Shown: positions 16,211 through 63,087, counted from the first letter of the stretch. The stretch: DNA of 64,000 bases from a virus (IMGVR_UViG_2541047860_000002), one strand, 5' to 3'. Made by a program: numbers and translations. Notes: generated by a model not told the origin, from the letters alone.

Positions 16211-17908
16211 TCACTTTTTTTCGTTAACCTTGCCTGTCAGCATGTCGATAGCGCCTTCTTTGGCACGAGTCAGACGCAGGCGGGTGAAGTAGTTTTCACC
16301 GTTGCGAGGATGTACTTCGTTGATGGCACTGCCCCAGAGAGTGGTACGGTTAACGAGAGACGGATTGGTTTCGTGCACGTAAGGGATTGCAGGGACTGCA
16401 TCACCAGCAATCAGACCGGCTTTACCGATGCCTTCGCCACGCCCATAGAAGAAGATGTCATCCAGCCCGAAGTCATATCCCTGTGCCTGGAATTGCTCAC
16501 AGACAGGTTGCGGCACTTCGTAAATACGAATCGTGCCAAACAGGGTGCCGATGTACTGTACATACGGCGACTGAACGTAACCTGGTGCGATCTGGAAGTG
16601 CTGTGGAGGCAGAGAGCGCAGGAAGTTCGCGGCGTCACCACCAGCAAAGCCGCCACGAATACCCGTTGTCAGGGTACGATTTGCCATTTCCTGAGACAGA
16701 GCGTTTACTACGTGACGCAGGAGGCCGACCCAGGACTCATAGTTTTGAGCTTCCGGCAGAGCCACATCAAATTCACGGCCATAAACGGTATGGAATACCA
16801 GGGTGCGCAGACGCATGATGTCGGTTTCATGGGAGATCCAGTTACGCATCGCGGAGAACTGAAGTGCCGCTAATTCAAGGCCGTGCTCACGGCTTAAATC
16901 GGATGCGGACATTACCGTGTGTTCGGAAGCAATTACGTACTGGGACGGACGAACTTCGTACTTACGCATAGCCTGGTTGATCACAGGAATCAGGCTTGGA
17001 TTGCGCTCGATGTTAATTTCGACCTGAACAGCAATTTCAGTACCTTCTGGCGGAGCCTGGGTAAATGTAATGTCAATGACACCAGTGTCATAGGCAACTT
17101 TGGCAGTCGCTGAGAAAGCATTACCTTTGCTGTCTTTAGCATTGAAATAAAGGTTGCCATCGCCGTCGTCAACTTTGGACGGTTTGCGGTTGATCAGCAG
17201 TTTGTTATAACCAGCGCGAAGCGGGCAGGATTGTCCCTCAAAATTTTGGATGTCGAACTGGAAGGTTTTGGTGCTGCCATCCCCTTTAGTGGAAAGGGTA
17301 TACAGGCGCTTCATTTGAGAATAAACACCAGCTGACTGCATATTCAGTTCGTCACCTTGTTTGAAGGTGCCGAATTTTGTGCCTGCTACGTTGACCAGTT
17401 CATAAATATTTGACTCGTCACGATCACAAGGAACAAAAGTACAGGCATCACTGGTAGCAGCGCCCAGAGAGGCAGGCAGAATTAGAGCAGCATATTGAGC
17501 AACTTTCATTACGCCGTCAGAGCTACGCATTGATTGCGCGACAGACTCAAACATTGCCTTACCCGTGCCTTCATGGGTATCACTGGCACATTCAGTCATC
17601 AGGCGTTCAAGAGCCATGTGTGCGTTCGCCAGGATGTCACTTGCCGGGTAATGACCATGTTGACGTTTATACTCATGCAGAGACATAGCCCACCCACCAG
17701 TGATCTGACGAGCGACCTCTGGATTTACGCCTTCAAACATAGGCACTTTCTGGATTGCTTTATCCAGGTTTTCCATCATTACTGCCTGGTCAGCAATCAT
17801 GTTGCCTGCTGCATCGGTGGTCGGATCGACGGTCATAGCCATGACGCTTGCCGCCCGATTCATAATCTCGCGCTCGCGATCACGAGCTGGCTGAATGTTT
17901 TTATTCAC
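16211..17908 (-). CDS. Major capsid protein (P1 gp23-like)
   Basis: 565-aa ORF at head of morphogenesis block; resemblance to P1-type major head protein. Confidence 0.6.
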   Translation of the reverse strand: MNKNIQPARDREREIMNRAASVMAMTVDPTTDAAGNMIADQAVMMENLDKAIQKVPMFEGVNPEVARQITGGWAMSLHEYKRQHGHYPASDILANAHMALERLMTECASDTHEGTGKAMFESVAQSMRSSDGVMKVAQYAALILPASLGAATSDACTFVPCDRDESNIYELVNVAGTKFGTFKQGDELNMQSAGVYSQMKRLYTLSTKGDGSTKTFQFDIQNFEGQSCPLRAGYNKLLINRKPSKVDDGDGNLYFNAKDSKGNAFSATAKVAYDTGVIDITFTQAPPEGTEIAVQVEINIERNPSLIPVINQAMRKYEVRPSQYVIASEHTVMSASDLSREHGLELAALQFSAMRNWISHETDIMRLRTLVFHTVYGREFDVALPEAQNYESWVGLLRHVVNALSQEMANRTLTTGIRGGFAGGDAANFLRSLPPQHFQIAPGYVQSPYVQYIGTLFGTIRIYEVPQPVCEQFQAQGYDFGLDDIFFYGRGEGIGKAGLIAGDAVPAIPYVHETNPSLVNRTTLWGSAINEVHPRNGENYFTRLRLTRAKEGAIDMLTGKVNEKK

Positions 17909-18034: not shown

Positions 18035-18053
18035 ATTTTAGTTTTCTAACACA
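18035..18053 (+). promoter_or_regulatory. Dispersed operator-like motif (reverse orientation of ATGTTAGAAAACTAA)
   Basis: ATTTTAGTTTTCTAACACA 14 bp upstream of ORF 18067. Confidence 0.4.
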
Positions 18054-18066: not shown

Positions 18067-18459
18067 ATGTCGTATCGAATCTTTGTTTCGTATAAAAATG
18101 GCGCTAAGAGCCACTCTCTGAACACAACAAGTCGCTTTCTTGTTGAGGCGCAGTTGGCATCAATTCTTGCCGAAAGTGAGATACTCTCGCTCGCTGAACG
18201 GATCGTTATCCAGTTTTCTGGTAGAGATATACTCAATGTCCCCGCCCTCACCCCGGCATCCGAAGTTATGGAATCAATTAAATGGCCTGTATGCGGATGT
18301 CCTGCCAGGGTTGAAGAGCCGGTAACTGCAACGCTCTACATGCCGAAAGCTGTAAGAGATTGGCTTGCTATGGTTGGCAATGGGAAAGTCAGTGCTGGAC
18401 TTCGCAAGTTAATTGAAATGGCAGATATTCCTGAGTTAAAAAATGCATGGCGACAATGA
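18067..18459 (+). CDS. Hypothetical protein
   Basis: 130-aa ORF. Confidence 0.4.
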   Translation: MSYRIFVSYKNGAKSHSLNTTSRFLVEAQLASILAESEILSLAERIVIQFSGRDILNVPALTPASEVMESIKWPVCGCPARVEEPVTATLYMPKAVRDWLAMVGNGKVSAGLRKLIEMADIPELKNAWRQ

Positions 18460-27029: not shown

Positions 27030-27935
27030 TTAACGTTCTGCTTCACCACCAACGGCCTCCACCAGCGAAGTGAACATCGCTGATAATTCAGCAGTAAACA
27101 GGATAAAGTCAGCGTCAAATCGTTGAGCAACATCCTCTCGATCAATATCGTCGTTCTGGTCGTACAATTCGTCGCTGAACGACAAAGCCTTGATACTCAT
27201 ATCGTCATTCAGTCTGAAAAATGCACGGTCTTGCCAGTTAACCGCAACTGTGGTTGCAACCTTACCAGCTTCTATATGACTCATGATCTCGTCGGATAGC
27301 AGGTCCACTTTTTTGCAGCGGACCGCGCCGCCATCATCAAGCAATGCTTTTAAGGTCGCTTCCTCACCGGCACGGAAACCGTTCGGGAAGCCATTTTTAA
27401 TCCAGCCAGTGATGGTCAGTTCTAATGGGTCTTTCGGAGAGAAGGGGACAACGGGCAAGCTGCCAAGAGATTTCCGTAACAAAGCCAGCTGATCCTCTGC
27501 TTTTTTAGCACTGCTCGCCTCGACAAAAACCAGATGATTGCTTCGGTCTATCAGGATTTTAGCGACTGATTTTCTCGTGAAAGCACGAGGAAGAAGAGAG
27601 TGAAGCACTTCATCCTTCAGCGAATCTTTTTCGGTCTTCTTCAGCTTTCTGTCTTGTTCTTCTTCAAGTTTCAGGATTTTTTTCTGTAGCTCTTCTTTGA
27701 GCACTTGAGAAGGTAGGATTTTTTCCTCTCGTTTATGCTGTATCAGAAGAAAACCCTTGTATTCATGGGTGAGGTTGTCGCCAAGGACGGGGGTCCAACC
27801 AGCTTTAGCAATATCCTGAGAACCGCATGGGGTAAACACAAACTTGTTAAGGGCAGCATTTACTTCTGCGGTATCCCAGTTAACTTCGCGTGAAAGACGA
27901 TAGATGAAGATATTTTTGAAAGCGACTGATCTCAT
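27030..27935 (-). CDS. rdgC: Recombination-associated protein RdgC homologue
   Basis: [52 protein letters not shown] and [19 protein letters not shown] blocks match RdgC, divergent from host copy. Confidence 0.85.
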
Positions 27936-35596: not shown

Positions 35597-35938
35597 TGTC
35601 CTTCCTCCACGGATGACGGATACAAAAAAAGGCCGCACATGGCGGCCTGCTTTGGCGTTATGACTCCCTACCGCGCTTCGGCTGAAAGTTAATCGTCAAA
35701 AGAACCTTCAACGGGAGCCGTTAGCGCGATGGATTATGTGCAGTTTGTGATTTCCAAAATAGTGTCAACCACTTTTTGTGGATTTTATTTTTTGACAGAA
35801 ATTTGGCCTAAATCATGTTGATTTGGCTGATTATTTTTATAACATAAAAGTCATTTTGATTGCATGAAGGACGGTGCAGTGAAGTTAAGGGTTTTAGGGA
35901 CCGCGCTCGCGGCTAAGATGGTAAGGTATGGAGTTAAT

Positions 35939-36763
35939 GAAATGTTTTTTATAAAAAATGGAAAAAGATTTTCCTCAACAATACTAGCTACTGTTGTTGC
36001 TCTTTTTGTCCCCACACTCACCTTTGCTTATGATTTTAGCAAAATTGACTGCAATTCCCCTAAAACTAGGCAGATGTTAATCGATGATTATAATGAACTG
36101 CTGAAGGACGATCAGGAAGCAATTTCTGTAATCGATGCTTATAATCAGATCAATGAGATAAGAGAAAAAAATAAGCTCCAATGCCTGGGAACGTATGAAT
36201 TCTCAGATGGAAGTGCGCTTAGGGTTAGATATAAGTTATATTTAAATAGCCTCGGCACCCCCATATATGAATTTGCTCCAGTTGAGGAGTTAACGCAAGA
36301 TGACGTAAGCGCATCTATCCAAAATATCCCTGCAACCACAGCGAGTAAGGCTGGAGGGAATGAAGAAACGTACTCCTGTAAAGTGGCTGTAACCTACAAT
36401 GGAAAGCGCTCTAACTATATGGGGGATACTGGAGTCTGGGATCGTGTGATTACTGACTATGGCACTTATTTCTCATGGGATTTGCCGCGCGGAAATCGAG
36501 GCAATAGTACAGGCCAGGATGCTTTTAGTGGCATGGACGAATCAAAGCCAGCATTAGAAAATAAGCTGGTGAGAAAGGAAGTCGAAAAAGATGGTAGCGT
36601 GGTTGATGAATTTAGGACTGATGTAAGTTATGGGGAAAAACAACCAGTTCATAAGTTTGTATATGCTCGTAGAATAAAACCTACAGGCATGAGAGAGTAT
36701 TATGTTACGGATTTAACAGACAAGCGGGCGTTTATGTTTCTGAATTGTCAGAGAGATTCGTGA
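35939..36763 (+). CDS. AT-rich gene for a secreted protein of unknown function
   Basis: Signal-peptide-like N-terminus (MFFIKNGKRFSSTILATVVALFVPTLTFA); low GC; ORF track start 35864 is an upstream extension. Confidence 0.45.
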   Translation, partial: EMFFIKNGKRFSSTILATVVALFVPTLTFAYDFSKIDCNSPKTRQMLIDDYNELLKDDQEAISVIDAYNQINEIREKNKLQCLGTYEFSDGSALRVRYKLYLNSLGTPIYEFAPVEELTQDDVSASIQNIPATTASKAGGNEETYSCKVAVTYNGKRSNYMGDTGVWDRVITDYGTYFSWDLPRGNRGNSTGQDAFSGMDESKPALENKLVRKEVEKDGSVVDEFRTDVSYGEKQPVHKFVYARRIKPTGMREYYVTDLTDKRAFMFLNCQRDS

Positions 36764-38800: not shown

Positions 38801-38829
38801 ATTGGCAGCCTCCTTTTGCTAATTTAAGG

Positions 38830-39599: not shown

Positions 39600-39618
39600 A
39601 ATGTTAGAAAACTAATTT
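39600..39618. promoter_or_regulatory. Operator-like motif AATGTTAGAAAACTAATTT
   Basis: Core ATGTTAGAAAACTAA identical to the site at 54926. Confidence 0.4.
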
Positions 39619-40190
39619 ATCAATTCAATTGCCATCTGATACAACGCCATTTCATCGGCATTGTGCCGCATGAAATCTGCTTTTCCGCCTATTTTTCCAT
39701 CAGCATGAACAGGGACCAGCCAGGGATATTGTTCTCGGACCTCGGCTGGCGCTGCGTACTGGTGGTGCCATTTACACAAAGGGAGGACATATTTATGCGC
39801 GTTCTCTGCCGTTCTCCCGAAGATATGGTGCAGGGATACTACTGGGCTATGTTGCCCGTGAATATGGCAGGCAATGCAGGGGAGAGTACCGATAGCGGTC
39901 TGTATCCGGCGTTCATCGGCTGTGAGTGATCTGCCCTTCAGGCCGCGTGACGTGCGTGTTTTTTTGGACGGAGCGGATACAGCTTTCTCTTTTCTCCGCT
40001 GGTCATATTGCTTTGCTTTTTCAATTTTTTTTTGCCGATATTCAGGCGATGCGGCTTTTTCTCTCGCTCGCTGCTGCTGGCGTTGAGCTTGTTGAAGGCG
40101 CTTTGCCCTTTGTTCCTCTCGCCAGGCCGGGTCAGCCAATTTTTGCATGGCTTTTTGTCTCTGTTTCTCCCAGTAGCTCTGTTTCTGCAT
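39612..40190 (-). CDS. HNH-like nuclease with basic disordered N-terminus (Ref-like, putative)
   Basis: N-terminal 100 aa K/R/Q-rich; C-terminal CIACHIHGQH..SLHHI..CKWHH metal-binding motif. Confidence 0.45.
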   Translation of the reverse strand: MQKQSYWEKQRQKAMQKLADPAWREEQRAKRLQQAQRQQQRAREKAASPEYRQKKIEKAKQYDQRRKEKAVSAPSKKTRTSRGLKGRSLTADERRIQTAIGTLPCIACHIHGQHSPVVSLHHIFGRTAENAHKYVLPLCKWHHQYAAPAEVREQYPWLVPVHADGKIGGKADFMRHNADEMALYQMAIELIN

Positions 40191-41400: not shown

Positions 41401-41899
41401 AGGTTTAACGCCCGCACAACTGGCAGAGCGTAACGCTGAGTATGTAACGGAAATTTCCCGACTTGAGCAAGAACGCTCGGCGCTGGCGGCGGAGAATGCG
41501 GGAATAAAGTCTGCAATTCCAGAATCACGGGATATTGAGGATGACAATGACAATATGGATGACGTATCTCTCGCGGAAGATTTCGGGTTCAATCATGCAA
41601 TAGAACTGATGAGGAGACGGATTCCTGAAACTCCGGCCACCGACGCTTTCCTGGCTGAAGTACGTGCGGAGGCACGCAACGAGGGGATTAACTACACCGC
41701 AAGCCGTCTTGCTGCTGCGTTCAATCACGGATTTATCAATAAGTCTTTGCGTGAAGTTTTCGACGTTACACGCATGATTTTGTCAGCGAAAGAAGAGTTG
41801 GCTAATGAACCGCATCCGCTTGATGGCCTGTCCGGTGAATATGCGGAGAAATCCCTAGAAGAATGGGCGGAACAGATTCGCAAAGGAAGCAGCCAGTGA
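41390..41899 (+). CDS. Hypothetical protein
   Basis: 169-aa ORF. Confidence 0.35.
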   Translation: MKSEGLTPAQLAERNAEYVTEISRLEQERSALAAENAGIKSAIPESRDIEDDNDNMDDVSLAEDFGFNHAIELMRRRIPETPATDAFLAEVRAEARNEGINYTASRLAAAFNHGFINKSLREVFDVTRMILSAKEELANEPHPLDGLSGEYAEKSLEEWAEQIRKGSSQ

Positions 41900-43409: not shown

Positions 43410-43450
43410 AAATTTGTTAGAACATTGATTATAGTTTTCTAACATATTAT
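43410..43450. promoter_or_regulatory. Operator-like motif pair
   Basis: TTGTTAGAACA and inverted TTTTCTAACATA upstream of ORF 43487. Confidence 0.4.
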
Positions 43451-44482: not shown

Positions 44483-44486
44483 TGAG

Positions 44487-45179
44487 GTGGATCAAAAAAT
44501 GAAAGAACGCGGGATGATTTTTAACGATGAGATGGTCAGGGCCATCCTCGAAGGAAGGAAGACGCAGACTCGCCGACCTGTAAAAAATGTCAGGGCCGAT
44601 AACTGCCTGGTTATCCGTAAACCGACAAAGAAACGCAATGGTGTCTATACCCACGTTATGGATGCACCTGAACATGGTTTATGCCCGTTCGGTAACGTTG
44701 GTGATCGCATATGGGTCCGTGAGGCGTGGGCGATATTAGGCAATGAGGATGGTTGCAGTGTGGACTGGAACGACAACCTTTGTCGTGGCGATGAGAAGAA
44801 CGCAGCAAGGATTTATCGGGCCAGTTGTGAGCAAAAGCCGGGTGATTACGGCTTGTGGTCGATACCCGATGATGCCGACTGGAAACCTCACACTGTGAAT
44901 GAAAAATTTGATGGCGGGTGGCGTCCATCAATTCACATGCCGCGCTGGGCATCGCGCATTTTGCTGGAAATTACCGACGTGCGTGTGGAACGGCTGCGTG
45001 ATATGAGCGAGGCAGATGCTAAAGCAGAAGGCGCATCTCCGGCGATGTACAAAATTACGCCGCCGGAAGCTGTTTATCGCGTTGGTTTTGGTGATATCTG
45101 GCGCAGTATTTACGGGCAGGATAACTGGCTATCTAACCCGTGGGTATGGGTAATCGAGTTTAAGCGCATTCAGGAATAA
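44487..45179 (+). CDS. Hypothetical protein
   Basis: 230-aa ORF. Confidence 0.4.
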   Translation: MDQKMKERGMIFNDEMVRAILEGRKTQTRRPVKNVRADNCLVIRKPTKKRNGVYTHVMDAPEHGLCPFGNVGDRIWVREAWAILGNEDGCSVDWNDNLCRGDEKNAARIYRASCEQKPGDYGLWSIPDDADWKPHTVNEKFDGGWRPSIHMPRWASRILLEITDVRVERLRDMSEADAKAEGASPAMYKITPPEAVYRVGFGDIWRSIYGQDNWLSNPWVWVIEFKRIQE

Positions 45180-45262
45180 ACCGTGAGTATGCATCAAATC
45201 GTCAGTTTTTCAGGTGGACGAGCATCGGCCTGTCTCGTTCATCTGTTCGAAGAGGTAGTGGC

Positions 45263-45466
45263 ATGACAATCGTAAAAACCCATACCGGCACCGTGATCAC
45301 CAAAGACGGTCCGCAGGTAAAAAAACTGCACCAAACAGAGCGGATGTGGGTCGTCGGCAAAAATGAGTTTTACCACAAAGATACCGGACGCCGCCACTTT
45401 GCAGAAAATACGCGCCGTCGACTGCTGTTAGACACCATCAAGCCTATCGAGGTGAAGCATGTTTAA
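45263..45466 (+). CDS. Hypothetical small protein
   Basis: 67-aa ORF. Confidence 0.3.
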   Translation: MTIVKTHTGTVITKDGPQVKKLHQTERMWVVGKNEFYHKDTGRRHFAENTRRRLLLDTIKPIEVKHV

Positions 45467-45698
45467 ACAGAACGAAAAAGCTATCGCTCAAATTGCTGAT
45501 TATATCCCGCGTGCGTGCCGGGGTATGCAGTTGCAGGAAGCCAAAGCGCGCCTGGAGAAAAAAATTGCGCTCTATATTGATGACGGCTGTGATGCTGCCG
45601 TTCTTAACGCGGCGTTCGCACCAGCTCTTAACAGTCATACTCGGGAGTCTTTTTTTTCGTGCATCGAAGCGCAACTCCGCAAAGGAGGCAACCAGTGA
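45459..45698 (+). CDS. Hypothetical small protein
   Basis: 79-aa ORF. Confidence 0.3.
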   Translation: MFKQNEKAIAQIADYIPRACRGMQLQEAKARLEKKIALYIDDGCDAAVLNAAFAPALNSHTRESFFSCIEAQLRKGGNQ

Positions 45699-46420
45699 GC
45701 CAGATTGATTATCAAAAGCTTCGTGAAATCGCTGAAAAAACAAAAATTGCCGGTGAAGCACCTGTAATGCCTTTCGATCAGCGAATTAATGCGCTTAACG
45801 ATTTTATGAAGCACTTTTCGCCAGATATCGCGCTGGCATTGTTGGATGAACGGGAAAGAAACCAGCAATACATCAAACGCCGCGACCAGGAGAACGAGGA
45901 TATTGCGCTTACGGTTGGGAGGCTGCGCGTTGAGCTGGAAGGCAAAGACAGCAAAATAGCCAATCTTACCGCCGAACGCGATGCTCTTCGTGAAGGTGAG
46001 ATGGGCGACGCTAGGCATAGCAACACACGGGCCGCAGCTGATATCTACTTCCAACTGGTCGAGGAATGCGAAATTCCTGCTGGCGGATCTCTGGTCGAGT
46101 ACGTTGACGATATGCGCGAGAAGCTGGAAGCCGCAGAGAAGCGCATTGCAGAACTGGAAGCACGGGAAATAAAACCAGCCAAAGGCGAAGTTCTTGTCGT
46201 TGTCTCTGGTTTTACTGGTTGCGGGAAAAGCGCCATTGCCGGGGAAATAGAAATTGCGATGAAAGCTATTGGTGTGCCGGTTCAATGGACTAATGGCGAT
46301 GCAGAAAAGCATATGACCGGCGCTGACTGGCTGACAGCGATTGAGATGTACAAACCAACTGTGCGCATCGTGGAAGTTAATGTGCCACGCGCCGCTGGCA
46401 TTCGCATCAAAGGAGAGTGA
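45695..46420 (+). CDS. Coiled-coil protein (Ead/Ea22-like)
   Basis: GTG start with AGGAGG 6 nt upstream, overlapping previous stop (GTGA). Confidence 0.4.
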   Translation: MSQIDYQKLREIAEKTKIAGEAPVMPFDQRINALNDFMKHFSPDIALALLDERERNQQYIKRRDQENEDIALTVGRLRVELEGKDSKIANLTAERDALREGEMGDARHSNTRAAADIYFQLVEECEIPAGGSLVEYVDDMREKLEAAEKRIAELEAREIKPAKGEVLVVVSGFTGCGKSAIAGEIEIAMKAIGVPVQWTNGDAEKHMTGADWLTAIEMYKPTVRIVEVNVPRAAGIRIKGE

Positions 46421-46421
46421 T

Positions 46422-46616
46422 ATGGCAACCAACAACCGTAAAGCAAAGATTCTGTTAGTTCGTAGAAACGCTCCTGGCGTCTGGCAGTGGGTGAGACTCA
46501 GCAACCGACGGATGGGGTTGATGAAATATTACGGGATGATGGATTGTGGTTTTTGCAAAAAGCCCAGCGCGGCGCAAAACCGCTGGAAAAACCATTTGCG
46601 CACTAAAGGAGAGTGA
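46422..46616 (+). CDS. Hypothetical small protein
   Basis: Start preceded by AAAGGAGAGTGAT. Confidence 0.35.
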   Translation: MATNNRKAKILLVRRNAPGVWQWVRLSNRRMGLMKYYGMMDCGFCKKPSAAQNRWKNHLRTKGE

Positions 46617-46617
46617 T

Positions 46618-46827
46618 ATGGCTATTGCCGCAAGTTACACCATGCATCTCTATTGTGACTGCCGCCAGTGTACGGAAGGTGTATATCCAGTGCCAGACTT
46701 CGGTGAGTATATCGGTACGTCATGGTCTGGTTGTGCAAAAGAGGCGCGCAAGGATGGCTGGCGCATAAGCAAAGACAAAACGCGTGCTTTTGCGCCCGGG
46801 CATAAAGTTTTGAGGATTAACAAATGA
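46618..46827 (+). CDS. Hypothetical small Cys-rich protein
   Basis: Identical initiation region AAAGGAGAGTGATATGGC as previous gene. Confidence 0.35.
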   Translation: MAIAASYTMHLYCDCRQCTEGVYPVPDFGEYIGTSWSGCAKEARKDGWRISKDKTRAFAPGHKVLRINK

Positions 46828-47990
46828 CCACTATTACCAAAGAGCGACTGCTGGCAATCAAGCAGTGGCGCGAAACATACGGACCTGGTAGCAACGTTGT
46901 ACTGCCAGCAGAAGAAGCGGAAGAACTGGCACGGATTGCTCTGGCAGCGCTGGAAGCTGAACCTGTTCTGTATCAGTCCTGCACTCGCCCCACTTGGAAT
47001 AGCGGTGTTCCGTGGACGGAATGGAAAGAACGTAGTCGTGAGGGCTACGAAAACGATTTGCGCTTTACAGACACGCCTGACCATGCCGGTTGGATAAACA
47101 AATGCCGAAAACAATATACCACTCCGCCAGTTCCGGTAATGCAGGCTGATGTCGCGCAAGCAATTGAAAACCTCAAGCAGAAGTTAGTGGAATGCAATCG
47201 CTATAACTACTGCGCAGATGCCGTTAAAGGTGTTGAGGATGCCAGCCGCGTCTTGGCACTCCAAAATCAAAATATGTCAGCGCCGATAACGCCGGAGGCT
47301 ATTGAAAACGCAATTGAATACATCCGCAGTATCGCTTTTCACATCAATGAAGACGATTACCACGGCAAACATATTGCGTATTTCATGCGACAAGCATTGG
47401 CCTGGCTGGAAGGGCATTCATGCAGCAACGATAGACTGGGTAAAGCCGATAATCAACCAGTACGCGGCAACCAGGCTGCCGAATCCAATCGCGGTAATGA
47501 GTGGACCGGCAATCCTGATATTGATAACGCCATCATCATGCTCGATCGCATAGATACTCTGGAAAATTGCGATGATGACCGTATTGAGGCTGTTAAGGCC
47601 GTTTTGCGTAGACTGGCTGGCAACTATCCGGATATTCCGGATAGTTCGGTGCCAGCGCCAGGAAAGGGCGTCACCGGTGAACGTATCCGAATTAAGCCGC
47701 ATGTTTATCGCGAACTGGTTAACCGTCTCCACGATACAGCGATCAAGTGTGCTGGCACCCAGCAATTACGAGAAAGAATTAGCCGTGTTTTAGGCGACGT
47801 TATTACGCCAGATCATCATAAACAAGCCGAGAAAAGTGGCTTGGAAAGGTGTCACCTTGAGGCGGCATTAAACATTAAGCCGGGGCATACACTTGGCATT
47901 ATTGATGCACTATTGGTTCATAAGATGGCCAGGGCTTTATTGCCGCTGGTGGCTGAAAAGCATGAGGTGGACCATGCCAACGAAAGCTGA
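46824..47990 (+). CDS. Hypothetical protein carrying C-terminal module shared with ORF 40463..41086
   Basis: HVYRELVNRLHDTAIKCAGTQQLRERIS. Confidence 0.4.
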   Translation: MTTITKERLLAIKQWRETYGPGSNVVLPAEEAEELARIALAALEAEPVLYQSCTRPTWNSGVPWTEWKERSREGYENDLRFTDTPDHAGWINKCRKQYTTPPVPVMQADVAQAIENLKQKLVECNRYNYCADAVKGVEDASRVLALQNQNMSAPITPEAIENAIEYIRSIAFHINEDDYHGKHIAYFMRQALAWLEGHSCSNDRLGKADNQPVRGNQAAESNRGNEWTGNPDIDNAIIMLDRIDTLENCDDDRIEAVKAVLRRLAGNYPDIPDSSVPAPGKGVTGERIRIKPHVYRELVNRLHDTAIKCAGTQQLRERISRVLGDVITPDHHKQAEKSGLERCHLEAALNIKPGHTLGIIDALLVHKMARALLPLVAEKHEVDHANES

Positions 47991-53117: not shown

Positions 53118-53458
53118 CGACGCCCCCTTGCAGGATAGCGACCTGCATTAGTATCCGGTGCAATAAAGCCGGTAGTGGGGCGAGTGAAAGCGAGATTAAT
53201 CTTCTCGACCATAGTGCGATAATTTTCCTGATAGTGGGCCAGGAGTTTTTCGGCGGCAATGATGGTTACTTTCCGGACGTAGCTTTCTGCTTCCTCCAGA
53301 TTTCGCCAGTTTTTTTCGAGGGTAAACACAGGGACGGCCTCAAGCCCGGTCATGATGCCGAACACAACGACAGCATGACTGTTCTTAACACCAGCGGCGA
53401 AGGTTACGGTGTAACCATCCACCTTAAAGCGTCTTGATTCCGTGATTTGACTCTGCAA
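53114..53458 (-). CDS. Hypothetical protein
   Basis: 114-aa ORF. Confidence 0.4.
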   Translation of the reverse strand: MQSQITESRRFKVDGYTVTFAAGVKNSHAVVVFGIMTGLEAVPVFTLEKNWRNLEEAESYVRKVTIIAAEKLLAHYQENYRTMVEKINLAFTRPTTGFIAPDTNAGRYPARGRR

Positions 53459-53515
53459 AGCACCCTCCGAAATAGGCGAGGGTACTTTACAGCAAAGATA
53501 ACAATCTAAAAAGAT

Positions 53516-53534
53516 GTGTTAGAAATTTAATTTA
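53516..53534. promoter_or_regulatory. Operator-like motif TGTGTTAGAAATTTAATTT
   Basis: Lies between the dre stop and the start of the 53458 operon. Confidence 0.4.
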
Positions 53535-54560
53535 TGAATCCATCAGGCGGCTATTAGCCCCCACAGACACGCCGCCACGGCGCAGATACCGCATAAGTGT
53601 TTCCGGTTTCTTCCAGGTTCCTTCCTGCATGATCTCCACCATAGACACCTGCTTTTCTGCCATATCGATAGCAGCCCCGACACGAGCACTATGCCCGGTC
53701 CACGTCCGGTATCTCCCCTTGTTTGGAGTGGCATCTCTTTTATTCAGCAACACCCAGGCGTCACTAAATATTTTCTCCATTGCAGGTGCAGTAAGGGGCG
53801 TTGTCGTAATCCTGGCCTTATTGCTACGGTGTATCGGCGGGAACAGCACCGCGTCAGGATGTTCACGAAGCCCGGAAACATCCAGCCAGTCATTCAGCAC
53901 AGCAGTAGTGCGACGGGAAAGCACCTTATCAAGCCCGGCGGCGGTCGTTATTGTCTTCGTGTGTGAAATATGTAGCGTGACAGTGTCACCTGTTTGGTCC
54001 AGATCTCCTACACGAATACGCGAGATTTCAGACATGCGCATCAGCGTATTGTATGCAACAAAGAGAAAAGCCCGGTTGCGCAGGTCCACCAGCCGTTCTG
54101 ACCTGGACAACAGGACGTCGAGCAGTTTCAGATCGTCCCACCGCAGCGGTATAGCCTGGCCTGTTCGTTCGCCTTTTTCCGTTGCCGCTTCACGCCGGAT
54201 GCGCCGCATAGCCAGAGAAACACTTTTATCATCCGAAAGTGGCGGAAGGCCACAATGCGAAAGCAGCATGTTCAGCATGGCGTAGTGCTTATCAATGGTG
54301 GTCGAAGCCAGATCAGCATCATGCAGCTGAAGAAAATACTCGCGGGCCATCTCTGGAGAGATCGGGAACCAGGCGAGCTGGCGAGCGTGACACCATCTCG
54401 CCCAGGAGTGAAACACTAACCGGAGATCGCGCAAAGTATTAGGCGCGTAAGCCCCCTGGTCATTCATGAACCGCATAAAGTTTTCTGCGGCCTCCTGGTA
54501 CTCTTTGCCAATGTTGCGCAGAAAACCACTGGAGCTGCCAGAGATAATTAATTCACTCAT
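53532..54560 (-). CDS. dre: Cre-family tyrosine site-specific recombinase (Dre-type)
   Basis: 342-aa protein alignable with P1 Cre along its length (MRRIRRE.., AFLFVAYNTLMRMSEISRIRVGD, HSARVGAAIDMA, C-terminal Tyr); rox-type site 150 bp upstream. Confidence 0.9.
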   Translation of the reverse strand: MSELIISGSSSGFLRNIGKEYQEAAENFMRFMNDQGAYAPNTLRDLRLVFHSWARWCHARQLAWFPISPEMAREYFLQLHDADLASTTIDKHYAMLNMLLSHCGLPPLSDDKSVSLAMRRIRREAATEKGERTGQAIPLRWDDLKLLDVLLSRSERLVDLRNRAFLFVAYNTLMRMSEISRIRVGDLDQTGDTVTLHISHTKTITTAAGLDKVLSRRTTAVLNDWLDVSGLREHPDAVLFPPIHRSNKARITTTPLTAPAMEKIFSDAWVLLNKRDATPNKGRYRTWTGHSARVGAAIDMAEKQVSMVEIMQEGTWKKPETLMRYLRRGGVSVGANSRLMDS

Positions 54561-54712
54561 GAAACTATTTAACCTCTATATACAGATGACGCTACGCGAA
54601 AAATATAAAAATGACAGGGTAGCTATAAGTTAATTTTCAAGATTCAAACCTTTGATTCGAGGCACGTATTTTCAGTGATGTCAACACTGATCATCCACCC
54701 ATGATTATAGCT

Positions 54713-54744
54713 TAACTTTAAATAATGCCAATTATTTAAAGTTA
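54713..54744. other. rox-type recombination site (14-bp inverted repeats, 4-bp spacer)
   Basis: TAACTTTAAATAAT-GCCA-ATTATTTAAAGTTA, perfect palindrome arms; identical to the rox site of phage D6 Dre as I remember it. Confidence 0.85.
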
Positions 54745-54924
54745 TAAAGTGCCAATTTTTTTTAATCCATCATAGATTGATGATGACCAGTAACACGTTG
54801 CCTTCATGGTCTTTAATTTGCGAAGTGTGGTTTCTACGGTTGGTTTTCTAAAATTGATGACAAAAAATCACAGTTCGATCCTTTACTCACTCTGTTATTC
54901 GACATAAATTTGTCATAGTAATTT

Positions 54925-54942
54925 TATGTTAGAAAACTAAAT
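54925..54942 (+). promoter_or_regulatory. Operator-like motif TATGTTAGAAAACTAAAT
   Basis: 13 bp upstream of ATG 54955. Confidence 0.4.
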
Positions 54943-54954
54943 CGAGTAGGAATA

Positions 54955-55992
54955 ATGAGTAAGAAGTCGATCGAGAAAGAGTACAAACGGTTCCTGCAAA
55001 CCGCTGAACGGTGGAAAGAGCTGGTGGTCGCAAACTCTGTTTTCCATGATACCAGTTATGCTGGCGAGGAATTCCGCCATGTTGCATTAACGCATGACCA
55101 AAACATATTAGAAGAAGCTGAAAAATGTCTTGCTGAATGGAAAGCCTTCGTTGACATGTGCCGCGATTCCGACGGCAAAGCGTCGAACATTGTTGAGTCT
55201 GTATATTCTCCGATCCCATTCATCATTGAGGACACCAATCAAAGCACGCATGTTGTTGTGCAAAGCGCTACAACAACACGTACATTTACACGTGAACAAT
55301 TGCTCAAAAAATACGACAAAATCATAAAGAAAAGCCTGAAAAATAGGGTTTTTTCTCAAATCGTAGGCGCTCTTGAAGAAGAACAGCGCTTCTTTGAAGC
55401 TGAGCCTGAAGGCGAGATCTACCGGGCGCGTAAAGAGGCATATACAGATGTTGTGCTGACAACAAATATCGAAGGCAGCAATGCCCTTTCTCGCTTTAGA
55501 GTTGGCGCACATGGCGCATTGGTTTTCGCAAGACTACCGAAGACAACGATCCCCGTTGTCAATAATGTTGGTGAACGCCGGAGCATTACAATTTATTCTG
55601 GCGTCGAATCGGTACCTTGCAGCCTTCTCGGCGATTTTAACTTATATCGTGTTCGTGACCTGGAAAAACACCAGCCAAGCTACGTTGCGAAGTCGTACAT
55701 CTTAAGGAACATCGATATTCGCAATGAAAGCCTTAAGCAGAAATCCGCTAAGATGCTGGAGGATGCCGATCCGGCTATTCGCCATATCATTGAGCGTAAG
55801 ATACGTACATCACGTGAAGCAATGGCAAGGCTGGATAAAATGGATCTGGAATTGTTAGACGTAATGATGGCCTCTGGAGACGACCTGACCGGCATTAAAC
55901 TGAATGAAGCTCGTAAAAAATACGGCAAAGCAATCGAAGAACGTTACGGATACACATTCCCCCAAACGCAGTACGCCGCGAAGCTCTGGTAA
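54955..55992 (+). CDS. Hypothetical protein at the immunity-locus position (between rox and pacB)
   Basis: 345-aa ORF; no recognisable family; operator-like motif in its leader. Confidence 0.45.
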   Translation: MSKKSIEKEYKRFLQTAERWKELVVANSVFHDTSYAGEEFRHVALTHDQNILEEAEKCLAEWKAFVDMCRDSDGKASNIVESVYSPIPFIIEDTNQSTHVVVQSATTTRTFTREQLLKKYDKIIKKSLKNRVFSQIVGALEEEQRFFEAEPEGEIYRARKEAYTDVVLTTNIEGSNALSRFRVGAHGALVFARLPKTTIPVVNNVGERRSITIYSGVESVPCSLLGDFNLYRVRDLEKHQPSYVAKSYILRNIDIRNESLKQKSAKMLEDADPAIRHIIERKIRTSREAMARLDKMDLELLDVMMASGDDLTGIKLNEARKKYGKAIEERYGYTFPQTQYAAKLW

Positions 55993-56019
55993 TCACAACC
56001 GGCCCCGCATCGCGGGGCT

Positions 56020-57528
56020 TTATATATCCAGATCAGGCATTTCGATATCCGCCAGAACCTGATCTCGGAAAGTTGCCATTTCGGCACCAATATCTTCATT
56101 AGCAGGCACATAGTCCACCAGCATAGTGAAGCAGTAGGTATCCCATCGGTCAGGCGATTTGATGTTTAGCTTTTGCCGCATGTGCTCTTTGCGCATCATC
56201 GCCATTTTCCCTTCTTCATTCAGTAAAAAGGGGATTTTTGACGCTTGCTCTGCCGTTTTAGGGTCACTGTCTATCCGCATACGCCCTGACTTTATGGCAT
56301 CACGCGCCATAATATTTGCGTAGGCACGCTGATTAACAAATCGCTCCCTGTCTTTGTTCGCAAACATGGGTTTTCCCCACCGAATACGTACCGGGTTCGC
56401 ACCACGACGCACCAACTGCGCACACGTATCAGAACCAAAACCATCAGCATCAACCGCGATTGTTATATTCGGGTATTTTTCCGGCGTACATTCGTTATAT
56501 ATGAAGTCAGCAAAGGCCAATGGGTCCATAGTGCCAGGCATCTCCATTACCTTAAAGTTAACAACGCGACGCTTATCCCTGTGACCAGATACCTTGCAGA
56601 TGTTGAGGACCGACTTATCTCGCCCATTACCAACGTCAGCCGTTGCCACCCATCCCCAGTTTTTCTCCAACAACACCTTGCGGCGAGCAGCGCGATCGCA
56701 TTCATCACGACCAAGCAAATAGCCGTTAATTTCTCGTGGGAACTGACCAAGCACCTTGACCATGTACTCAATAGAATCGCGCCCGCCATATTCCAGAAGC
56801 TTCTGCTTGATGAATTGTGGTGTGACGAACGGTGATTCTTCCGAGTTAAGAACAATTGCTGTCCAGATCCCTTTCGGGTTGTCTGGGGTTTTTGCTTGAG
56901 AATGGTGCGAATCGTAGAAATAACCACTTGGCCTTGTTGGCTGGGATAGCATCAACATCCGGTTATCTTCTTCAGTAAGAGCACCGGTCATTACGCCGAT
57001 CGCCTTATCAGATATACCAGATGCTTCGTCCAGAATTAGAAGCAAATGTGCCGCGTGTTCCCCCGCCAGCGCTTCTTCGTTGCCGAGTCGATAACCTTTG
57101 CAGAGAACTTCCCAAATCCCCTTACGGGAGCGCTCATAAAACATGGTGTCAGAGAGGACAAAATAGGTCTGCAACCACCCATGACGCTTAACTGCATTCG
57201 CCCAATACTGTTTAACGTATTTGAATACGCCTGTTTTTACCTGGCCTATCTTGTTAGCAACAATGATGACACGGGCATCGGGGAACAGGATCATAAAAAT
57301 CAACAGCAACATCGCGGTAAGGGACGACTTCCCCGTTCCGTGTCCGGACGTGACGGTCGTCCTACTCCCCGTTTCCTGCACTGACTGAATGATCTGCTGC
57401 TGCTGGTGGGAGGGGAACATCCCAAAAATATCGACAACAGCCTGGGTAAAGTTGTAGCGGTATTTGATTACCATATCGCGCCAGCGTGGATCGCTGGTGA
57501 CGCATTTAATCTTGCGCCCGCCAGCCAT
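56020..57528 (-). CDS. pacB: Terminase large subunit (PacB-like)
   Basis: Walker A GHGTGKS near N-terminus, ~500 aa, directly downstream of and coupled to pacA. Confidence 0.75.
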   Translation of the reverse strand: MAGGRKIKCVTSDPRWRDMVIKYRYNFTQAVVDIFGMFPSHQQQQIIQSVQETGSRTTVTSGHGTGKSSLTAMLLLIFMILFPDARVIIVANKIGQVKTGVFKYVKQYWANAVKRHGWLQTYFVLSDTMFYERSRKGIWEVLCKGYRLGNEEALAGEHAAHLLLILDEASGISDKAIGVMTGALTEEDNRMLMLSQPTRPSGYFYDSHHSQAKTPDNPKGIWTAIVLNSEESPFVTPQFIKQKLLEYGGRDSIEYMVKVLGQFPREINGYLLGRDECDRAARRKVLLEKNWGWVATADVGNGRDKSVLNICKVSGHRDKRRVVNFKVMEMPGTMDPLAFADFIYNECTPEKYPNITIAVDADGFGSDTCAQLVRRGANPVRIRWGKPMFANKDRERFVNQRAYANIMARDAIKSGRMRIDSDPKTAEQASKIPFLLNEEGKMAMMRKEHMRQKLNIKSPDRWDTYCFTMLVDYVPANEDIGAEMATFRDQVLADIEMPDLDI

Positions 57529-58892
57529 TAATCATCCTCCGGCGGTTCTATCGCGATATCATCATCTCCGGCGTCATACCCTGCATCAGATGCATCATAA
57601 TCACCGTAAATTTCAGCCGTTGCCGAAGGGTCAATATCCAGCTCTTCGTCGTTGGCCTCGAATTCTCCAGCTTTACGCTCGCCATTGCGGTCGTAATCTC
57701 CGCACCCCAATTCTTCAACAATGGTTGCCACATCCGCCCGGCGCTCTGCCAGCCATTGCGGATGGTTAGCCTGAAGCGTTGCAAACTCCCTTGCCTCTTT
57801 GTCCAGCTGTTCATCATCAACATCATTGACGTCAGAAACAGGTGGTTCGAGAAGAGTGATAGCTTTCGCCGCGCGCGCCGCGAGGATAGCCGGGACGCTG
57901 ACCCCCTGGCGCTCGATGTATTCAGCAACACCGATATCATCCAGTTCCTCGCGCTCACGCATACGTATAGCGGCGGCGATAACTCTGGCAGCGCGTGCGT
58001 CAGCGCCAATGCGATATTCAATCTCTTTGCCACGCTGTTCGGCCTGTAGGCGTGCTAATTCGAGTTTTTCTCTGGCCTCAGCCTCTTTGAATGCTTGCTG
58101 GCGAGCGCTCTGACGAAGCTTTTCATCCCCCTGTCGCAGCTTTTGTTCGGACTGATATATAGCTGCCAACCTACTGATAAAATCATTCATGTAGTAGGCC
58201 GCGTCACTGATTAGACCGAGAAGGCGCTGCCCAGGGTGCATTCCTTCTGGCTCTTTATCGCCCAAGGCGTCTATTTCCGCCTGTAGACGTTCGGCCTCCT
58301 GATCAACAATGCTTTGATACTGAAGTGCGCGCTCTTGCGCCATTTGAATTGCTAACCGCAGGTGTTCTTCTGCGCCGTTCTTCATCATGTCGCGAGCCAC
58401 ATTCGTAGTGGGCAATGTGGCACGTTGCACAGCACCGCCAGGGATCATTGCTGAAGATCCCTCAATTTTTGGGGCGCTTTTATCTTCTTCGGGGATCATT
58501 TTCGCCATTTTTTCGCGCAATGATCTCCTGACAGATTCTTTTATCTCATTGTTATTATTTGCATTATTTTCATGATCCGAAGTTTTCTTTCTCGGCATAC
58601 TTCGGAAAGAACCTGCGCCCTGCGAATTGTCAATTTCTGTAAATTTTGTTTTTTCTGCACCCTCTTCCAGCTTTTTTGTTGCTCTTCCCGCCCGTTTTTT
58701 TTCAGGTGATTTGGTGCTTTTTTTTGTTGTCTTTACCTGCGACCGCACCTCATTTTTTTTCATATTGAGATGCTTTCTGGCTGTATTGAAGCTAAGGCCA
58801 TGCTCCTCACAGTATTCCTTTACAGTGATCCCTTTTTCTTCACGCAACGCTATAAAGCGGGCGCGGTGCTCCTCCCAATTAACCAGACTCAT
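57528..58892 (-). CDS. pacA: Terminase small / pac-recognition subunit (PacA-like)
   Basis: 454-aa protein with N-terminal HTH-like region and very acidic C-terminus; contains GATC cluster. Confidence 0.6.
   Translation of the reverse strand: MSLVNWEEHRARFIALREEKGITVKEYCEEHGLSFNTARKHLNMKKNEVRSQVKTTKKSTKSPEKKRAGRATKKLEEGAEKTKFTEIDNSQGAGSFRSMPRKKTSDHENNANNNNEIKESVRRSLREKMAKMIPEEDKSAPKIEGSSAMIPGGAVQRATLPTTNVARDMMKNGAEEHLRLAIQMAQERALQYQSIVDQEAERLQAEIDALGDKEPEGMHPGQRLLGLISDAAYYMNDFISRLAAIYQSEQKLRQGDEKLRQSARQQAFKEAEAREKLELARLQAEQRGKEIEYRIGADARAARVIAAAIRMREREELDDIGVAEYIERQGVSVPAILAARAAKAITLLEPPVSDVNDVDDEQLDKEAREFATLQANHPQWLAERRADVATIVEELGCGDYDRNGERKAGEFEANDEELDIDPSATAEIYGDYDASDAGYDAGDDDIAIEPPEDD
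58443..58577. other. Candidate pac site: cluster of five GATC (Dam) sites inside pacA
   Basis: GATC at 58443, 58456, 58494, 58522, 58574, three as ATGATCC elements; ~10x over expectation. Confidence 0.35.
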
Positions 58893-59281
58893 AAAGCAAC
58901 ACCACGCTTTTTAACGGCGGCATTCCACAGCTTATTCGCCATGTCCACCAGCTCTCGTTGCTCTTTTCGCGCCTGTTCGACTGATTTCCTGCTACAGTTT
59001 TTAACCAGTAAGCTACCGTATTCAGGCGTGCGCCCGCGCACCTTGAACTGATATCCGTTCAGACCATGTAGCCAGTATTTTCGTGGATACACACGATCAT
59101 CCAGCTCACAGATTGCCCTGCTTGAACGAACAAAATGACGAATGATGTTAGTTACACTTACTCGTGAAACATGGAGATGAGGGTATTTTTCTTTGGCGAG
59201 AGTGGTAATTTCAGTGACTGTCAGATAGCAGTCAGCCCTGATCATGATATCCGCAATTTCTGCGCTGCTGATTTGTTCCAT
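58889..59281 (-). CDS. Hypothetical protein upstream of pacA (late-activator position)
   Basis: 130-aa ORF overlapping pacA start. Confidence 0.35.
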   Translation of the reverse strand: MEQISSAEIADIMIRADCYLTVTEITTLAKEKYPHLHVSRVSVTNIIRHFVRSSRAICELDDRVYPRKYWLHGLNGYQFKVRGRTPEYGSLLVKNCSRKSVEQARKEQRELVDMANKLWNAAVKKRGVAL

Positions 59282-59389
59282 TAATCCCCCGGGCAGGAAA
59301 TGACCGAGGGGATGATAATGAGAATGTTAAAACTGTATAGACTGGTAAAAAGATGATTATATTAGAAAATTAATATTAAATACCTAACG

Positions 59390-60811: not shown

Positions 60812-60887
60812 TGGTGGCCCCTACCGGACTTGAACCGGTGACCGTGCGATTATGAGTCGCCAGCTCTAACCACTGAGCTAAAGGGCC
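60812..60887 (-). tRNA. tRNA with CAU anticodon (Ile2 lysidine-type or Met; resembles enterobacterial ileX)
   Basis: Manual cloverleaf: acceptor GGCCCTT/AGGGGCC, D-arm GCTCAGTGGTTAGAGC, anticodon loop CTCATAA, T-arm ACCGG-TTCAAGT-CCGGT, 3' CCA. Confidence 0.7.
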
Positions 60888-61041
60888 AGATTACTGTTAA
60901 TTCCGCTTACGCTTTTTGCCAGGACCGCGTAAGGCTTTTGCTGCTTGCTCGACCCCATATGCAACCACCAGCAGAAATAAAAATGTCCACCAAGGGTTCT
61001 TGTCGGCAAACGTCCAAAATTCCATCATGTTATCTATTTGG

Positions 61042-61869
61042 TTATTTCACCGGAACAAACGGAACAGCGGTATTACTGGTCATATACTGCGGTAGCGTTC
61101 CGTTCCATTTGTTGATCGCTTCCAACTCCATAACGCCGGGGTTCTGGCGCAGAGCCTCACCGCGTAAACGAATGGCATCAGCTTCAGCCTGGGCTTTTGT
61201 GCGAATGGCATCGGCCTGTCCAGCAGCTTCTGCGCGCAGCATGTTGGCTTCTGCTTCGCGTTGCTTGACTTCCTGCTCGCGTTGCAGAGTTTTCTGGTTC
61301 GCCGTGACTTTGGCATTAATGCTGTCGATAACGGTTGGCGGGTACTCCGGCTTGCCCACATATGAGAGGCTCATTACCTGAATACCGATGGGCGTCATTT
61401 CTTCCTGAATGTCTTTAAGGGCTGCATCAAGCAATTCAGATTTGCCACCGTCGATAAATTTGTCGGTGGTCATTTTGCTGGCTAACCGGTTCAGAGCATC
61501 TGCAACCTTCTGGCGTAGATCGGTATCAGTAATATCATCTACACCTTTGCGATAGGTCTGAAATACCGTTGTGACTTTTGCTGGATCAACCTTGTAGGCT
61601 ACGCCGATGTGGTAACCAATGGTTGTTCCGTCGCTCATCTGGAAGCTGAACGGCTCATCGTATGTCTTCATTTGCTTAAAGGTCGGGAAGATATAAACTT
61701 CAGTATTCAAGCCTGTCCAGTAGCGACCAACGCCAACTACTTCACCGATACCTTTATCATCCCCCAGCTTATTTACTTTGATCCCTACGTTACCTGGCTC
61801 TACCCGATCGCATCCGGTCAGACATAAAGAACCAAAAATAATCGCTGCACTAATCAACGTTTTTTTCAT
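61042..61869 (-). CDS. SPFH/band-7 domain lipoprotein
   Basis: Signal peptide with lipobox LTGC; stomatin/prohibitin-like core and Ala/Glu-rich coiled-coil tail. Confidence 0.65.
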   Translation of the reverse strand: MKKTLISAAIIFGSLCLTGCDRVEPGNVGIKVNKLGDDKGIGEVVGVGRYWTGLNTEVYIFPTFKQMKTYDEPFSFQMSDGTTIGYHIGVAYKVDPAKVTTVFQTYRKGVDDITDTDLRQKVADALNRLASKMTTDKFIDGGKSELLDAALKDIQEEMTPIGIQVMSLSYVGKPEYPPTVIDSINAKVTANQKTLQREQEVKQREAEANMLRAEAAGQADAIRTKAQAEADAIRLRGEALRQNPGVMELEAINKWNGTLPQYMTSNTAVPFVPVK

Positions 61870-62086
61870 TAATCAATTTCCTGGTTTTTTCACGAAAAAA
61901 GACTACTGCAAAAGCCGGGTAAATGAGCGCGAGAAGGACTCCCAACAATACAAGTATTGTGCTGTCAGATGAGATCATATTTGGCAAAAGCCAAACATAC
62001 AGAACCAGTGACACAATCAAACAGAGGACGACATAAATATATAACCGCACCCATAGCGTTCGACATTTGTTCGGATTGTTCTGCAT
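61850..62086 (-). CDS. Small two-TM membrane protein, overlapping start of SPFH gene
   Basis: 78-aa ORF, two hydrophobic helices. Confidence 0.4.
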   Translation of the reverse strand: MQNNPNKCRTLWVRLYIYVVLCLIVSLVLYVWLLPNMISSDSTILVLLGVLLALIYPAFAVVFFREKTRKLINEKNVD

Positions 62087-62349
62087 CCTCTCACTCCATT
62101 ATTTACCGAATAAAAAAGCTGCGGTGCCTGGTGCCTCCAGGTGACGTTAACCAGTTAACAATTAACGCCGGGATGTTTGACTTAACCACTAAGGAGGATT
62201 GTTTTAACTGTTCCGCGTGCGCTTAGCCGCATTCACCGCAATGGTAAGAGCACTTGGCTGGCTGGGCGGCGATGACGCCTGTACGCATTTGGTGATCCGG
62301 TTCTGCTTCCGGCATTCGCTTAATTAGCCAAATACTCTTAACGTTGCAC

Positions 62350-62436
62350 TGGCGGAGAGTAATGGAATCGAACCATCATCGCTTGCGCAATGGGACGGTT
62401 TTCAAGACCGCTTGAGCACCATGCTCCCTACTCTCC
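62350..62436 (-). tRNA. tRNA-Ser(UGA)-like, type II (long variable arm), atypical D-arm
   Basis: Acceptor GGAGAGT/ACTCTCC, anticodon stem-loop GCGGT-CTTGAAA-ACCGT, T-loop TTCGATT, 3' GCCA. Confidence 0.4.
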
Positions 62437-62838
62437 AGTGATTGTGATGGTCGGTGCTGAACTCCGACACAGGGTTGTAGCAAGCCCCGCAAAGCGCGCA
62501 CTACTGTAGTTGCGGCACATCAGCCTGTGCATTCACCACAATGTTGAGAACACTGGTTGTCACGCTGCAACGCAACATTTATTCATAGATTGGGATATGA
62601 CCCCGTTACGCCAGTGTTCTCAACGTTGTGGTGCCGGTTACGGTTCCGGCCAGGCCTCTTCCTCAACGGGGTGTTCTCCATACGGACTACCGTTTATTGG
62701 TCGTTCCTGCGGTTTATGTTGTGAAGCCAGATGCTTATCTTCTGGTTGCTTCAAAGAGCTGCACTTCATCACAACGGTAAGAGCACTCGATGCATTTAAG
62801 CCAAGCCCCATAAGGGAGAATGCCCTTACCTGTTGTGT

Positions 62839-62914
62839 TGGTGCCGGTTAACGGACTCGAACCGCTGACATCCTGCTTACAAGGCAGGCGCTCTACCAAC
62901 TGAGCTAAACCGGC
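62839..62914 (-). tRNA. tRNA-Thr(UGU)
   Basis: Acceptor GCCGGTT/AACCGGC, D-arm GCTCAGTTGGTAGAGC, anticodon loop CTTGTAA, T-loop TTCGAGT, CCA. Confidence 0.8.
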
Positions 62915-62918
62915 AATT

Positions 62919-63005
62919 TGGTGGGGAGTGATGGAGTCGAACCACCCGAGTCGCAATGACAGTAGATTTACAGTCTACCCCGCTACCCCTACGGACTAAC
63001 TCCCC
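62919..63005 (-). tRNA. tRNA-Tyr(GUA), type II
   Basis: Acceptor GGGGAGT/ACTCCCC, anticodon stem-loop GTAGA-CTGTAAA-TCTAC, 15-nt variable arm, T-loop TTCGACT, CCA. Confidence 0.6.
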
Positions 63006-63010
63006 TAAAT

Positions 63011-63087
63011 TGGCGATGGTGGGTGGATTCGAACCACCGACCGACAGCTTAGAAGGCTGCTGCTCTATCCTACTGAGCTACACCATC
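63011..63087 (-). tRNA. tRNA-Arg(UCU)
   Basis: Acceptor GATGGTG/CACCATC, D-arm GCTCAGTAGGATAGAGC, anticodon loop CTTCTAA, T-arm GGTGG-TTCGAAT-CCACC, GCCA. Confidence 0.75.

Follow-up and report, generated by a model that had tools for sequence, protein, structure and literature searches.

A D6-like phage-plasmid encodes a distant homolog of the P1 C1 repressor that is probably its primary lysogeny repressor

In phage P1, the C1 repressor is described as a monomer on asymmetric operators, and ref and immI are under its control. Its 17-bp operators, which are asymmetric and dispersed, number 22, and it also controls lpa (PMC8546580); going by the title of a reference cited in PMC1934351, Op68 controls the dam/dmt methylase. 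The P1 record annotates C1 operators that include Olpa and five around c1/coi, some of them designated 'bivalent.' A repressor of mycobacteriophages L5/L1, gp71, likewise acts at many dispersed asymmetric sites, some of them inside transcription units (PMC1934351). It is a functional analog only, being an unrelated HTH protein with no sequence or fold similarity found. For the corresponding protein of phage D6, we know of no biochemical characterization, nor do we know of experimental evidence for DNA binding or immunity by a D6-type protein. A study of D6-like plasmids in Salmonella ST213 treated the gene as a homolog of the C1 master lytic repressor gene and did not detect lxc in the D6-like plasmid (PMC6799933).

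The DNA that we analyzed is a 64,000-nt stretch from a virus (IMGVR_UViG_2541047860_000002), hereafter the window. As a preliminary description had stated, there is a single rightward 345-aa ORF between the rox site and pacB. It begins with ATG, is the only ORF of at least 34 aa in that interval, and is separated from rox by a gap of 210 bp (Table 1). The absence of the P1 coi and imc genes, also remarked on earlier, holds as well: the gap has no ORF of at least 34 aa, and Coi, ImcA and ImcB had no homologs in the window by tblastn (best E 0.77). The protein had been called unknown, however, and that is not the case. By megablast, window positions 53400-57600 match two D6 records, AY753669 for immC (98.3% identity at 100% coverage) and MF356679 for the complete genome (99.4% identity), in both of which the ORF is annotated as c1. 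The GenBank labels read 'phage repressor protein; similar to the C1 repressor of phage P1' and 'prophage repressor; similar to P1 gene C1.' The 345-aa protein is 99.7% identical to D6 C1, with 1 substitution in 345 residues (AAV84948.1 in AY753669; ASR76322.1, D6_1, in MF356679), and 100% identical to the product of Escherichia coli plasmid NZ_CP027309.1. On this sequence evidence, the gene is already known: it is the annotated c1 of D6-type, P1-family phage-plasmids.

Table 1. Features of the window, including putative C1 operators (positions counted from the first nucleotide)
Feature	Position	Strand	Remarks
capsid/orf52 site	18038..18051	-	In the gap that separates the major capsid gene (16211..17908, -) from the divergent orf52 homolog (18067..18459, +)
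hrdC inverted pair	27949-27962, 27965-27978	+, -	2-bp gap; 14-43 nt upstream of hrdC (27030..27935, -)
simB site	35831..35844	-	19 nt upstream of the simB homolog (35864..36763, +); overlaps a TTGATT-16-TAACAT promoter-like match
Anti-repressor candidate, Rha/KilA-like	~37644-38585		Downstream of the c4 RNA and icd
C4 antisense RNA	38855-38942	-	Rfam, 76 bits
isrK-type Hfq-binding RNA	38987-39065	-	Rfam, 59 bits
immI-like operon site	39602..39615	+	At the operon head; overlaps the ref stop codon and a minus-strand TTGAAT-16-TAACAT promoter-like match
ref inverted pair	40239-40252, 40255-40268	+, -	3 mismatches and 1 mismatch, respectively; 2-bp gap; upstream of ref (39612..40190, -)
ppp/pdcB inverted pair	43415-43428, 43431-43444	+, -	2-bp gap; between ppp and the pdcB homolog
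dre-end site	53517..53530	+	1 nt after dre; between dre and the downstream orf117-orf116-dut
dre	53532..54560	-	Left of rox/c1
Sigma-70 promoter-like match	54704-54731	-	TTGGCA-16-TATAAT, 11/12; begins within rox and points to dre
rox site	54713-54744		32 bp, TAACTTTAAATAATGCCAATTATTTAAAGTTA; also annotated in both D6 records (AY753669, MF356679); bounds the immC-like interval on the left
Distal c1-leader site	54840..54853	-	In the rox-c1 gap, with the opposite orientation to the proximal site
Proximal c1-leader site	54927..54940	+	Perfect consensus match TGTTAGAAAACTAA, 14 nt upstream of the c1 ATG
c1	54955..55992	+	345 aa and stop, ATG start
C1 residues 1-240	54955..55674	+	Core conserved among C1 proteins, alpha/beta; DNA-binding fold predicted to be Tus-like
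C1 residues 233-345	55651..55989	+	C-terminal extension in the predicted model, absent from P1 C1
Hairpin terminator-like element	56001..56019	+	G+C-rich with a T-run; between convergent c1 and pacB
pacB	56020..57528	-	Convergent with c1, right side
pacA	57528..58892	-	Right of pacB
lpa	58889..59281	-	Late-promoter activator, beyond pacA
lpa site	59360..59373	+	79 nt upstream of lpa; equivalent of P1 Olpa

The flanks of c1 match those in D6, with rox and dre on one side and pacB-pacA-lpa on the other. Most segments of the window are 95-99% identical to D6, which makes the element D6-like rather than D6 itself, and stretches around 44.5-47.1 kb are replaced. Positions ~44484-47114 and 41502-41884 have either no match or only an 84-96% match to D6, a pattern that resembles early-gene mosaic replacement. 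The minus strand carries four tRNA genes at 60815-63087, and the D6 record puts tRNAs on the plus strand at other offsets; in this region, the two elements seem to differ. At the left end, in a comparison of positions 1-604 with 550-1150, the first ~600 bases are 89% identical to a D6 stretch overlapping that matched by the following segment, and the D6 cixR inversion site is nearby, so that the window may start inside an invertible tail-fiber segment. The gene or a relative of it occurs in 149 PLSDB plasmids, mostly of about 90 kb and nonmobilizable, whose hosts include Escherichia, Salmonella, Citrobacter, Shigella and others.

The preliminary description had recognized no similarity to P1 C1 and had raised the possibility of a repressor from a different family. 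By eye and at the level of a BLAST database search, the first of these statements stands: tblastn with the 345-aa protein against 50,697 phage records returned D6 only and no P1 match. It does not survive pairwise or profile comparison. BLASTP against P1 C1 gave a single colinear alignment of residues 7-237 with residues 8-242 (21% identity over ~240 aa, E 3e-8). The NCBIfam profile NF041318 (phage_rep_C1) aligned residues 7-240 with profile positions 8-245 (E 1.1e-5, 25.2 bits). That score lies below the equivalog cutoff of 500 bits, and P1 C1 itself scores 607.5 bits; by these comparisons, the protein belongs to the C1 family as a distant member and is not a P1 C1 equivalog. Since the NF041318 threshold was missed by so much, function is transferred here across ~20% identity.

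Profile-profile comparison gave the same picture. With hhalign, a D6-clade alignment (A1; 9 sequences, down to 43% identity) matched a P1-clade alignment (A2; 11 sequences) with 97% probability and an E of 1e-10 over 230 columns. Searched exhaustively with an HMM of A1, 1.84 billion representatives yielded 83 matching clusters that form a continuum from D6-type proteins of 345-380 aa to P1-type proteins of 250-290 aa, with a member of the P1 clade (P0025) at E 4.6e-6. Pfam family PF27008 (Phage_P7_repressor_C1) is precomputed on members of both clades, including one that is 99% identical to the protein studied here (P0001). Conversely, tblastn of P1 C1 into the window had the c1 ORF as its sole match (E 3.6e-6) and revealed no second C1-like gene there. 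Hence, the protein is a distant homolog of P1/P7 C1, both falling in PF27008, and the proposal of a different family is abandoned. A BLAST-level search by itself would wrongly suggest an orphan.

Domain searches were otherwise uninformative. A Pfam-A scan of the 345-aa protein yielded no family at E values up to 10, and scans of P1 C1 and of relatives were likewise empty, because PF27008 is newer than the Pfam copy scanned. PHROGs returned only phrog_1678, of 'unknown function,' and no HTH, peptidase S24 or anti-repressor domain was recognized in Pfam, PHROGs or PDB sequence searches.

Gene order tells in favor of the same relationship. In both P1 and the window, lpa-pacA-pacB is followed by a convergent c1 and then by lox or rox with cre or dre. 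The two proteins thus share a homologous core of ~240 aa, the same genomic slot and the convergent arrangement with pacB, but they are only ~20% identical. They also differ in architecture: P1 C1 (283 aa) is 62 aa shorter and ends in a short basic tail, whereas the D6-type protein has a helical C-terminal module of ~110 aa.

We scanned the c1 leader for words that recur elsewhere, and positions 54921-54942 were singled out. Aligned copies gave the consensus tTTaTGTTAGAAAAyTAA. When up to 2 mismatches are allowed, TGTTAGAAAAYTAA has 12 sites in the 64-kb window against 1.39 expected, a number reached in 0 of 100 shuffles; at 3 mismatches, the count in the window is at chance level. All 12 sites lie outside D6-annotated genes, one of them overlapping the stop codon of ref. 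ORFs of at least 100 aa leave only 15.6% of the window uncovered. The operator-like motif that had been placed 13 bp upstream of the c1 start is among them: it is the perfect match proximal to c1, and the 13-bp spacing is obtained by counting the following A.

The P1 operator consensus ATTGCTCTAATAAATTT is not enriched in the window (1 match at 3 mismatches against 0.32 expected). Set against the reverse complement of the P1 operators (…ATTTATTAGAGCAAT), the motif has the TTAGA core and an A/T-rich 5' flank in common with them, but its 3' half differs. This comparison fits related proteins with different specificity, i.e., heteroimmunity. Conceivably, a different protein binds the motif. A literature search for operators of phage D6 found nothing relevant.

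Three locations carry inverted pairs of one geometry: a plus-strand 14-mer, 2 bp and a minus-strand 14-mer, each forming a near-palindrome of ~30 bp. The plus-strand member of the ref pair, with its 3 mismatches, was kept because it pairs with its neighbor in the geometry of the other two. This arrangement suggests that two repressor molecules bind tail-to-tail at the inverted pairs. It differs from that of Oc1ab in P1, where paired sites overlap. The hrdC pair precedes the first gene of the hrdC-methylase-dmt operon. Since the sites at lpa, ref, immI, dmt and c1 match P1 targets, the target set mirrors that of P1; as in P1/P7, there would be many dispersed asymmetric operators, the repressor's own gene included, some of them paired ('bivalent'). 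A consensus scan for promoters gave no convincing sigma-70 match for c1, and relaxed scans discriminate poorly in A/T-rich DNA, with 2 of the 12 sites (those at simB and at the head of the immI-like operon) overlapping decent -35/-10 pairs.

Two diverged relatives from public assemblies, L006 and L007 (the latter from run SRR12267734), encode C1 proteins that are 51% and 44% identical to the 345-aa protein, respectively. The order integrase, c1, pacB, pacA, lpa is kept in both. So are TGTTAGAAAA sites at equivalent places: two in the c1 leader, inverted relative to each other, one after the integrase gene and one near lpa. In both relatives, the proximal leader site lies 13-19 nt before the c1 start with its orientation kept, while the leader outside the motif sites has diverged; the site upstream of lpa is also present in L006. 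In spite of a C1 that is only 51% identical, L006 retains rox exactly. In L007, the Dre homolog is only 64% identical, and a variant 32-bp rox-like site, TAACTTTAGATAACTCCCATTATCTAAAGTTA, adjoins it (L007:9572-9800, 8544-9572); these may be a further heterospecific recombinase/site pair.

The remaining components of the P1 immunity system are only partly represented. Besides the missing Coi, ImcA and ImcB, Lxc gave a best tblastn E of 0.67 in the window together with D6 positions 1-8872 and 36000-91159. With no Coi and, in these segments, no Lxc found, the D6-type circuit appears to lack two of the three P1 modulators of C1, and its regulation would therefore differ. An immI-like operon is present, with all of its elements on the minus strand: small ORFs, the isrK-like RNA, the c4 RNA, icd and the anti-repressor candidate, headed by one of the motif sites. 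Since neither coi/imcA/imcB nor lxc was found, repressor inactivation probably proceeds via this anti-repressor.

The preliminary description had named structure prediction as a way to look for a DNA-binding fold. A first model, built from the 9-sequence alignment (pLDDT 78.5), was superseded by one from an 84-sequence family alignment (A4), with a pLDDT of 95 and a pTM of 0.81. In this model, the core (residues 1-232) is alpha/beta and has long beta-strands at 99-112 and 155-171. The extension consists of two long antiparallel helices (233-270 and 273-307) and three short ones (316-342), and it is conserved within the D6 clade down to ~30% identity. Across the 84 sequences, F13, R41, W62, P86, P88, R159 and G187 are invariant or nearly so. 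A Foldseek search of the full PDB with the model gave four significant matches, all of them to Tus, the E. coli replication terminus-binding protein (PDB 1ECR, 4XR0; Pfam PF05472, Ter); the best had an E of 9.2e-8 and a probability of 1.00, and the next match had an E of 0.28. In the Tus fold, beta-strands that contact DNA bridge two alpha+beta domains; the predicted model shows this arrangement, so that the core is predicted to be Tus-like. The global TM is only ~0.4, however, and the comparison is based on a predicted model.

At the sequence level, the link to Tus is not significant. hhalign gave 13%, HMM cross-searches gave at most 7.6 bits, and the HMM register is consistent, pairing C1 ~105-170 with Tus ~178-230, but is not significant either. 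The Ter family of Pfam had no match to the 345-aa protein at E values up to 10 and matched 2 of the 84 relatives, with a best E of 0.012. Hence, the model predicts a Tus-like fold without Tus-family membership, and the resemblance may reflect homology or convergence. PDB sequence searches with the 345-aa protein and with a P1 C1 profile returned no match, so there is no solved structure for the C1 family; searches of the available literature found no paper linking C1 and Tus, and C1 together with AlphaFold likewise gave nothing relevant. Tus acts as a monomer, and its interdomain beta-strands read an asymmetric site. The predicted resemblance is mechanistically attractive for a repressor of the C1 type, though Tus arrests replication forks and C1 represses transcription.

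We consider it very likely that the 345-aa protein is the primary lysogeny repressor of the immC region, that it is of the C1 type and that it is probably heteroimmune to P1. Homology, synteny and the operator-like motif all support the role of primary repressor that had been suggested before. Could the protein bind these sites without being the master repressor? It might act as a Tus-like polar roadblock to transcription or replication, or as an accessory regulator alongside another factor that maintains lysogeny. The only significant structural neighbor of the predicted core is indeed a fork-arrest protein, several sites lie between codirectional genes or at gene ends and not at obvious promoters (those starting at 53517, 39602 and 43415/43431), and the overlap of sites with promoters is weak. 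However, P1 C1 operators are likewise found in varied positions, the sites at lpa, ref, immI and c1 mirror P1 C1 operators, and the immC interval holds no other repressor candidate. The protein also shares homology and exact synteny with P1 C1, whose role is experimentally established. We therefore regard a nonmaster role as improbable.

It is more improbable still that the gene encodes a primary repressor from a family unrelated to P1 C1, which would have replaced c1 here. The tblastn search without a P1 match, the empty Pfam-A scan, the 62 additional residues and the absence of flanking coi/imc speak for such a replacement. Against it stand the colinear alignments with P1 C1, both pairwise and profile-profile, over ~240 residues, the exhaustive profile search that joins both clades and their common PF27008 assignment. 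At the sequence level, homology to P1 C1 refutes this reading. We give slightly less credence again to an anti-repressor that would inactivate, in the manner of Coi or Ant, a repressor whose gene lies elsewhere. Position alone favors it, P1 coi being in the equivalent interval. The protein has no similarity to Coi, though, and its homology is to the repressor itself; the window lacks a second C1-like gene, and a separate Rha/KilA-type anti-repressor with icd and the c4 RNA occupies ~37644-38942. The anti-repressor alternative that had been raised for this ORF is thus unsupported, the candidate for that function sitting elsewhere.

The case for a primary C1-type repressor rests on computation: the ORF, homology, synteny, motif enrichment, placement and conservation. 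From these we infer DNA binding, repression and immunity, and a role for the C-terminal module, as follows. C1 would recognize an asymmetric operator of ~14-18 bp, as P1 C1 does. Its operators would be scattered before early and regulatory genes, namely lpa, ref, the c4-icd-ant immI-like operon, hrdC-dmt, simB and c1 itself; with C1 bound to them, the lytic functions of the plasmid prophage would stay off. The two sites in the c1 leader imply autoregulation, and sites inside transcription units may be roadblocks rather than promoter occluders. The helical module of ~110 aa would pair two repressor molecules on the inverted site pairs. Immunity would be specific to D6-type phages and heteroimmune to P1, and the immI anti-repressor probably inactivates C1.

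The gene, at first an apparent orphan, is resolved as the known c1 of D6, and its interest now lies in the operator and regulon map, in the divergent architecture of the system (the C-terminal module, with no coi or lxc found) and in the predicted Tus-like fold. D6-like phage-plasmids are common in Escherichia, Salmonella, Citrobacter and Shigella, as the 149 plasmid records attest, and the operator motif gives a testable map of their immunity regulon. The repressor/operator pair is potentially orthogonal to P1 C1 and would stand beside the already-exploited Dre/rox system. It is possible, if on balance somewhat doubtful, that all C1 repressors of P1-like phage-plasmids (P1, P7, D6; PF27008) have a Tus-type fold in which interdomain beta-strands, not an HTH, read asymmetric operators, and that in the D6 clade the helical C-terminal module pairs two molecules on 30-bp inverted operators. 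If confirmed, a Tus-like fold would provide the first structural rationale for the reading of asymmetric sites by C1-type proteins, and it would explain why C1 never matched any classical repressor family.
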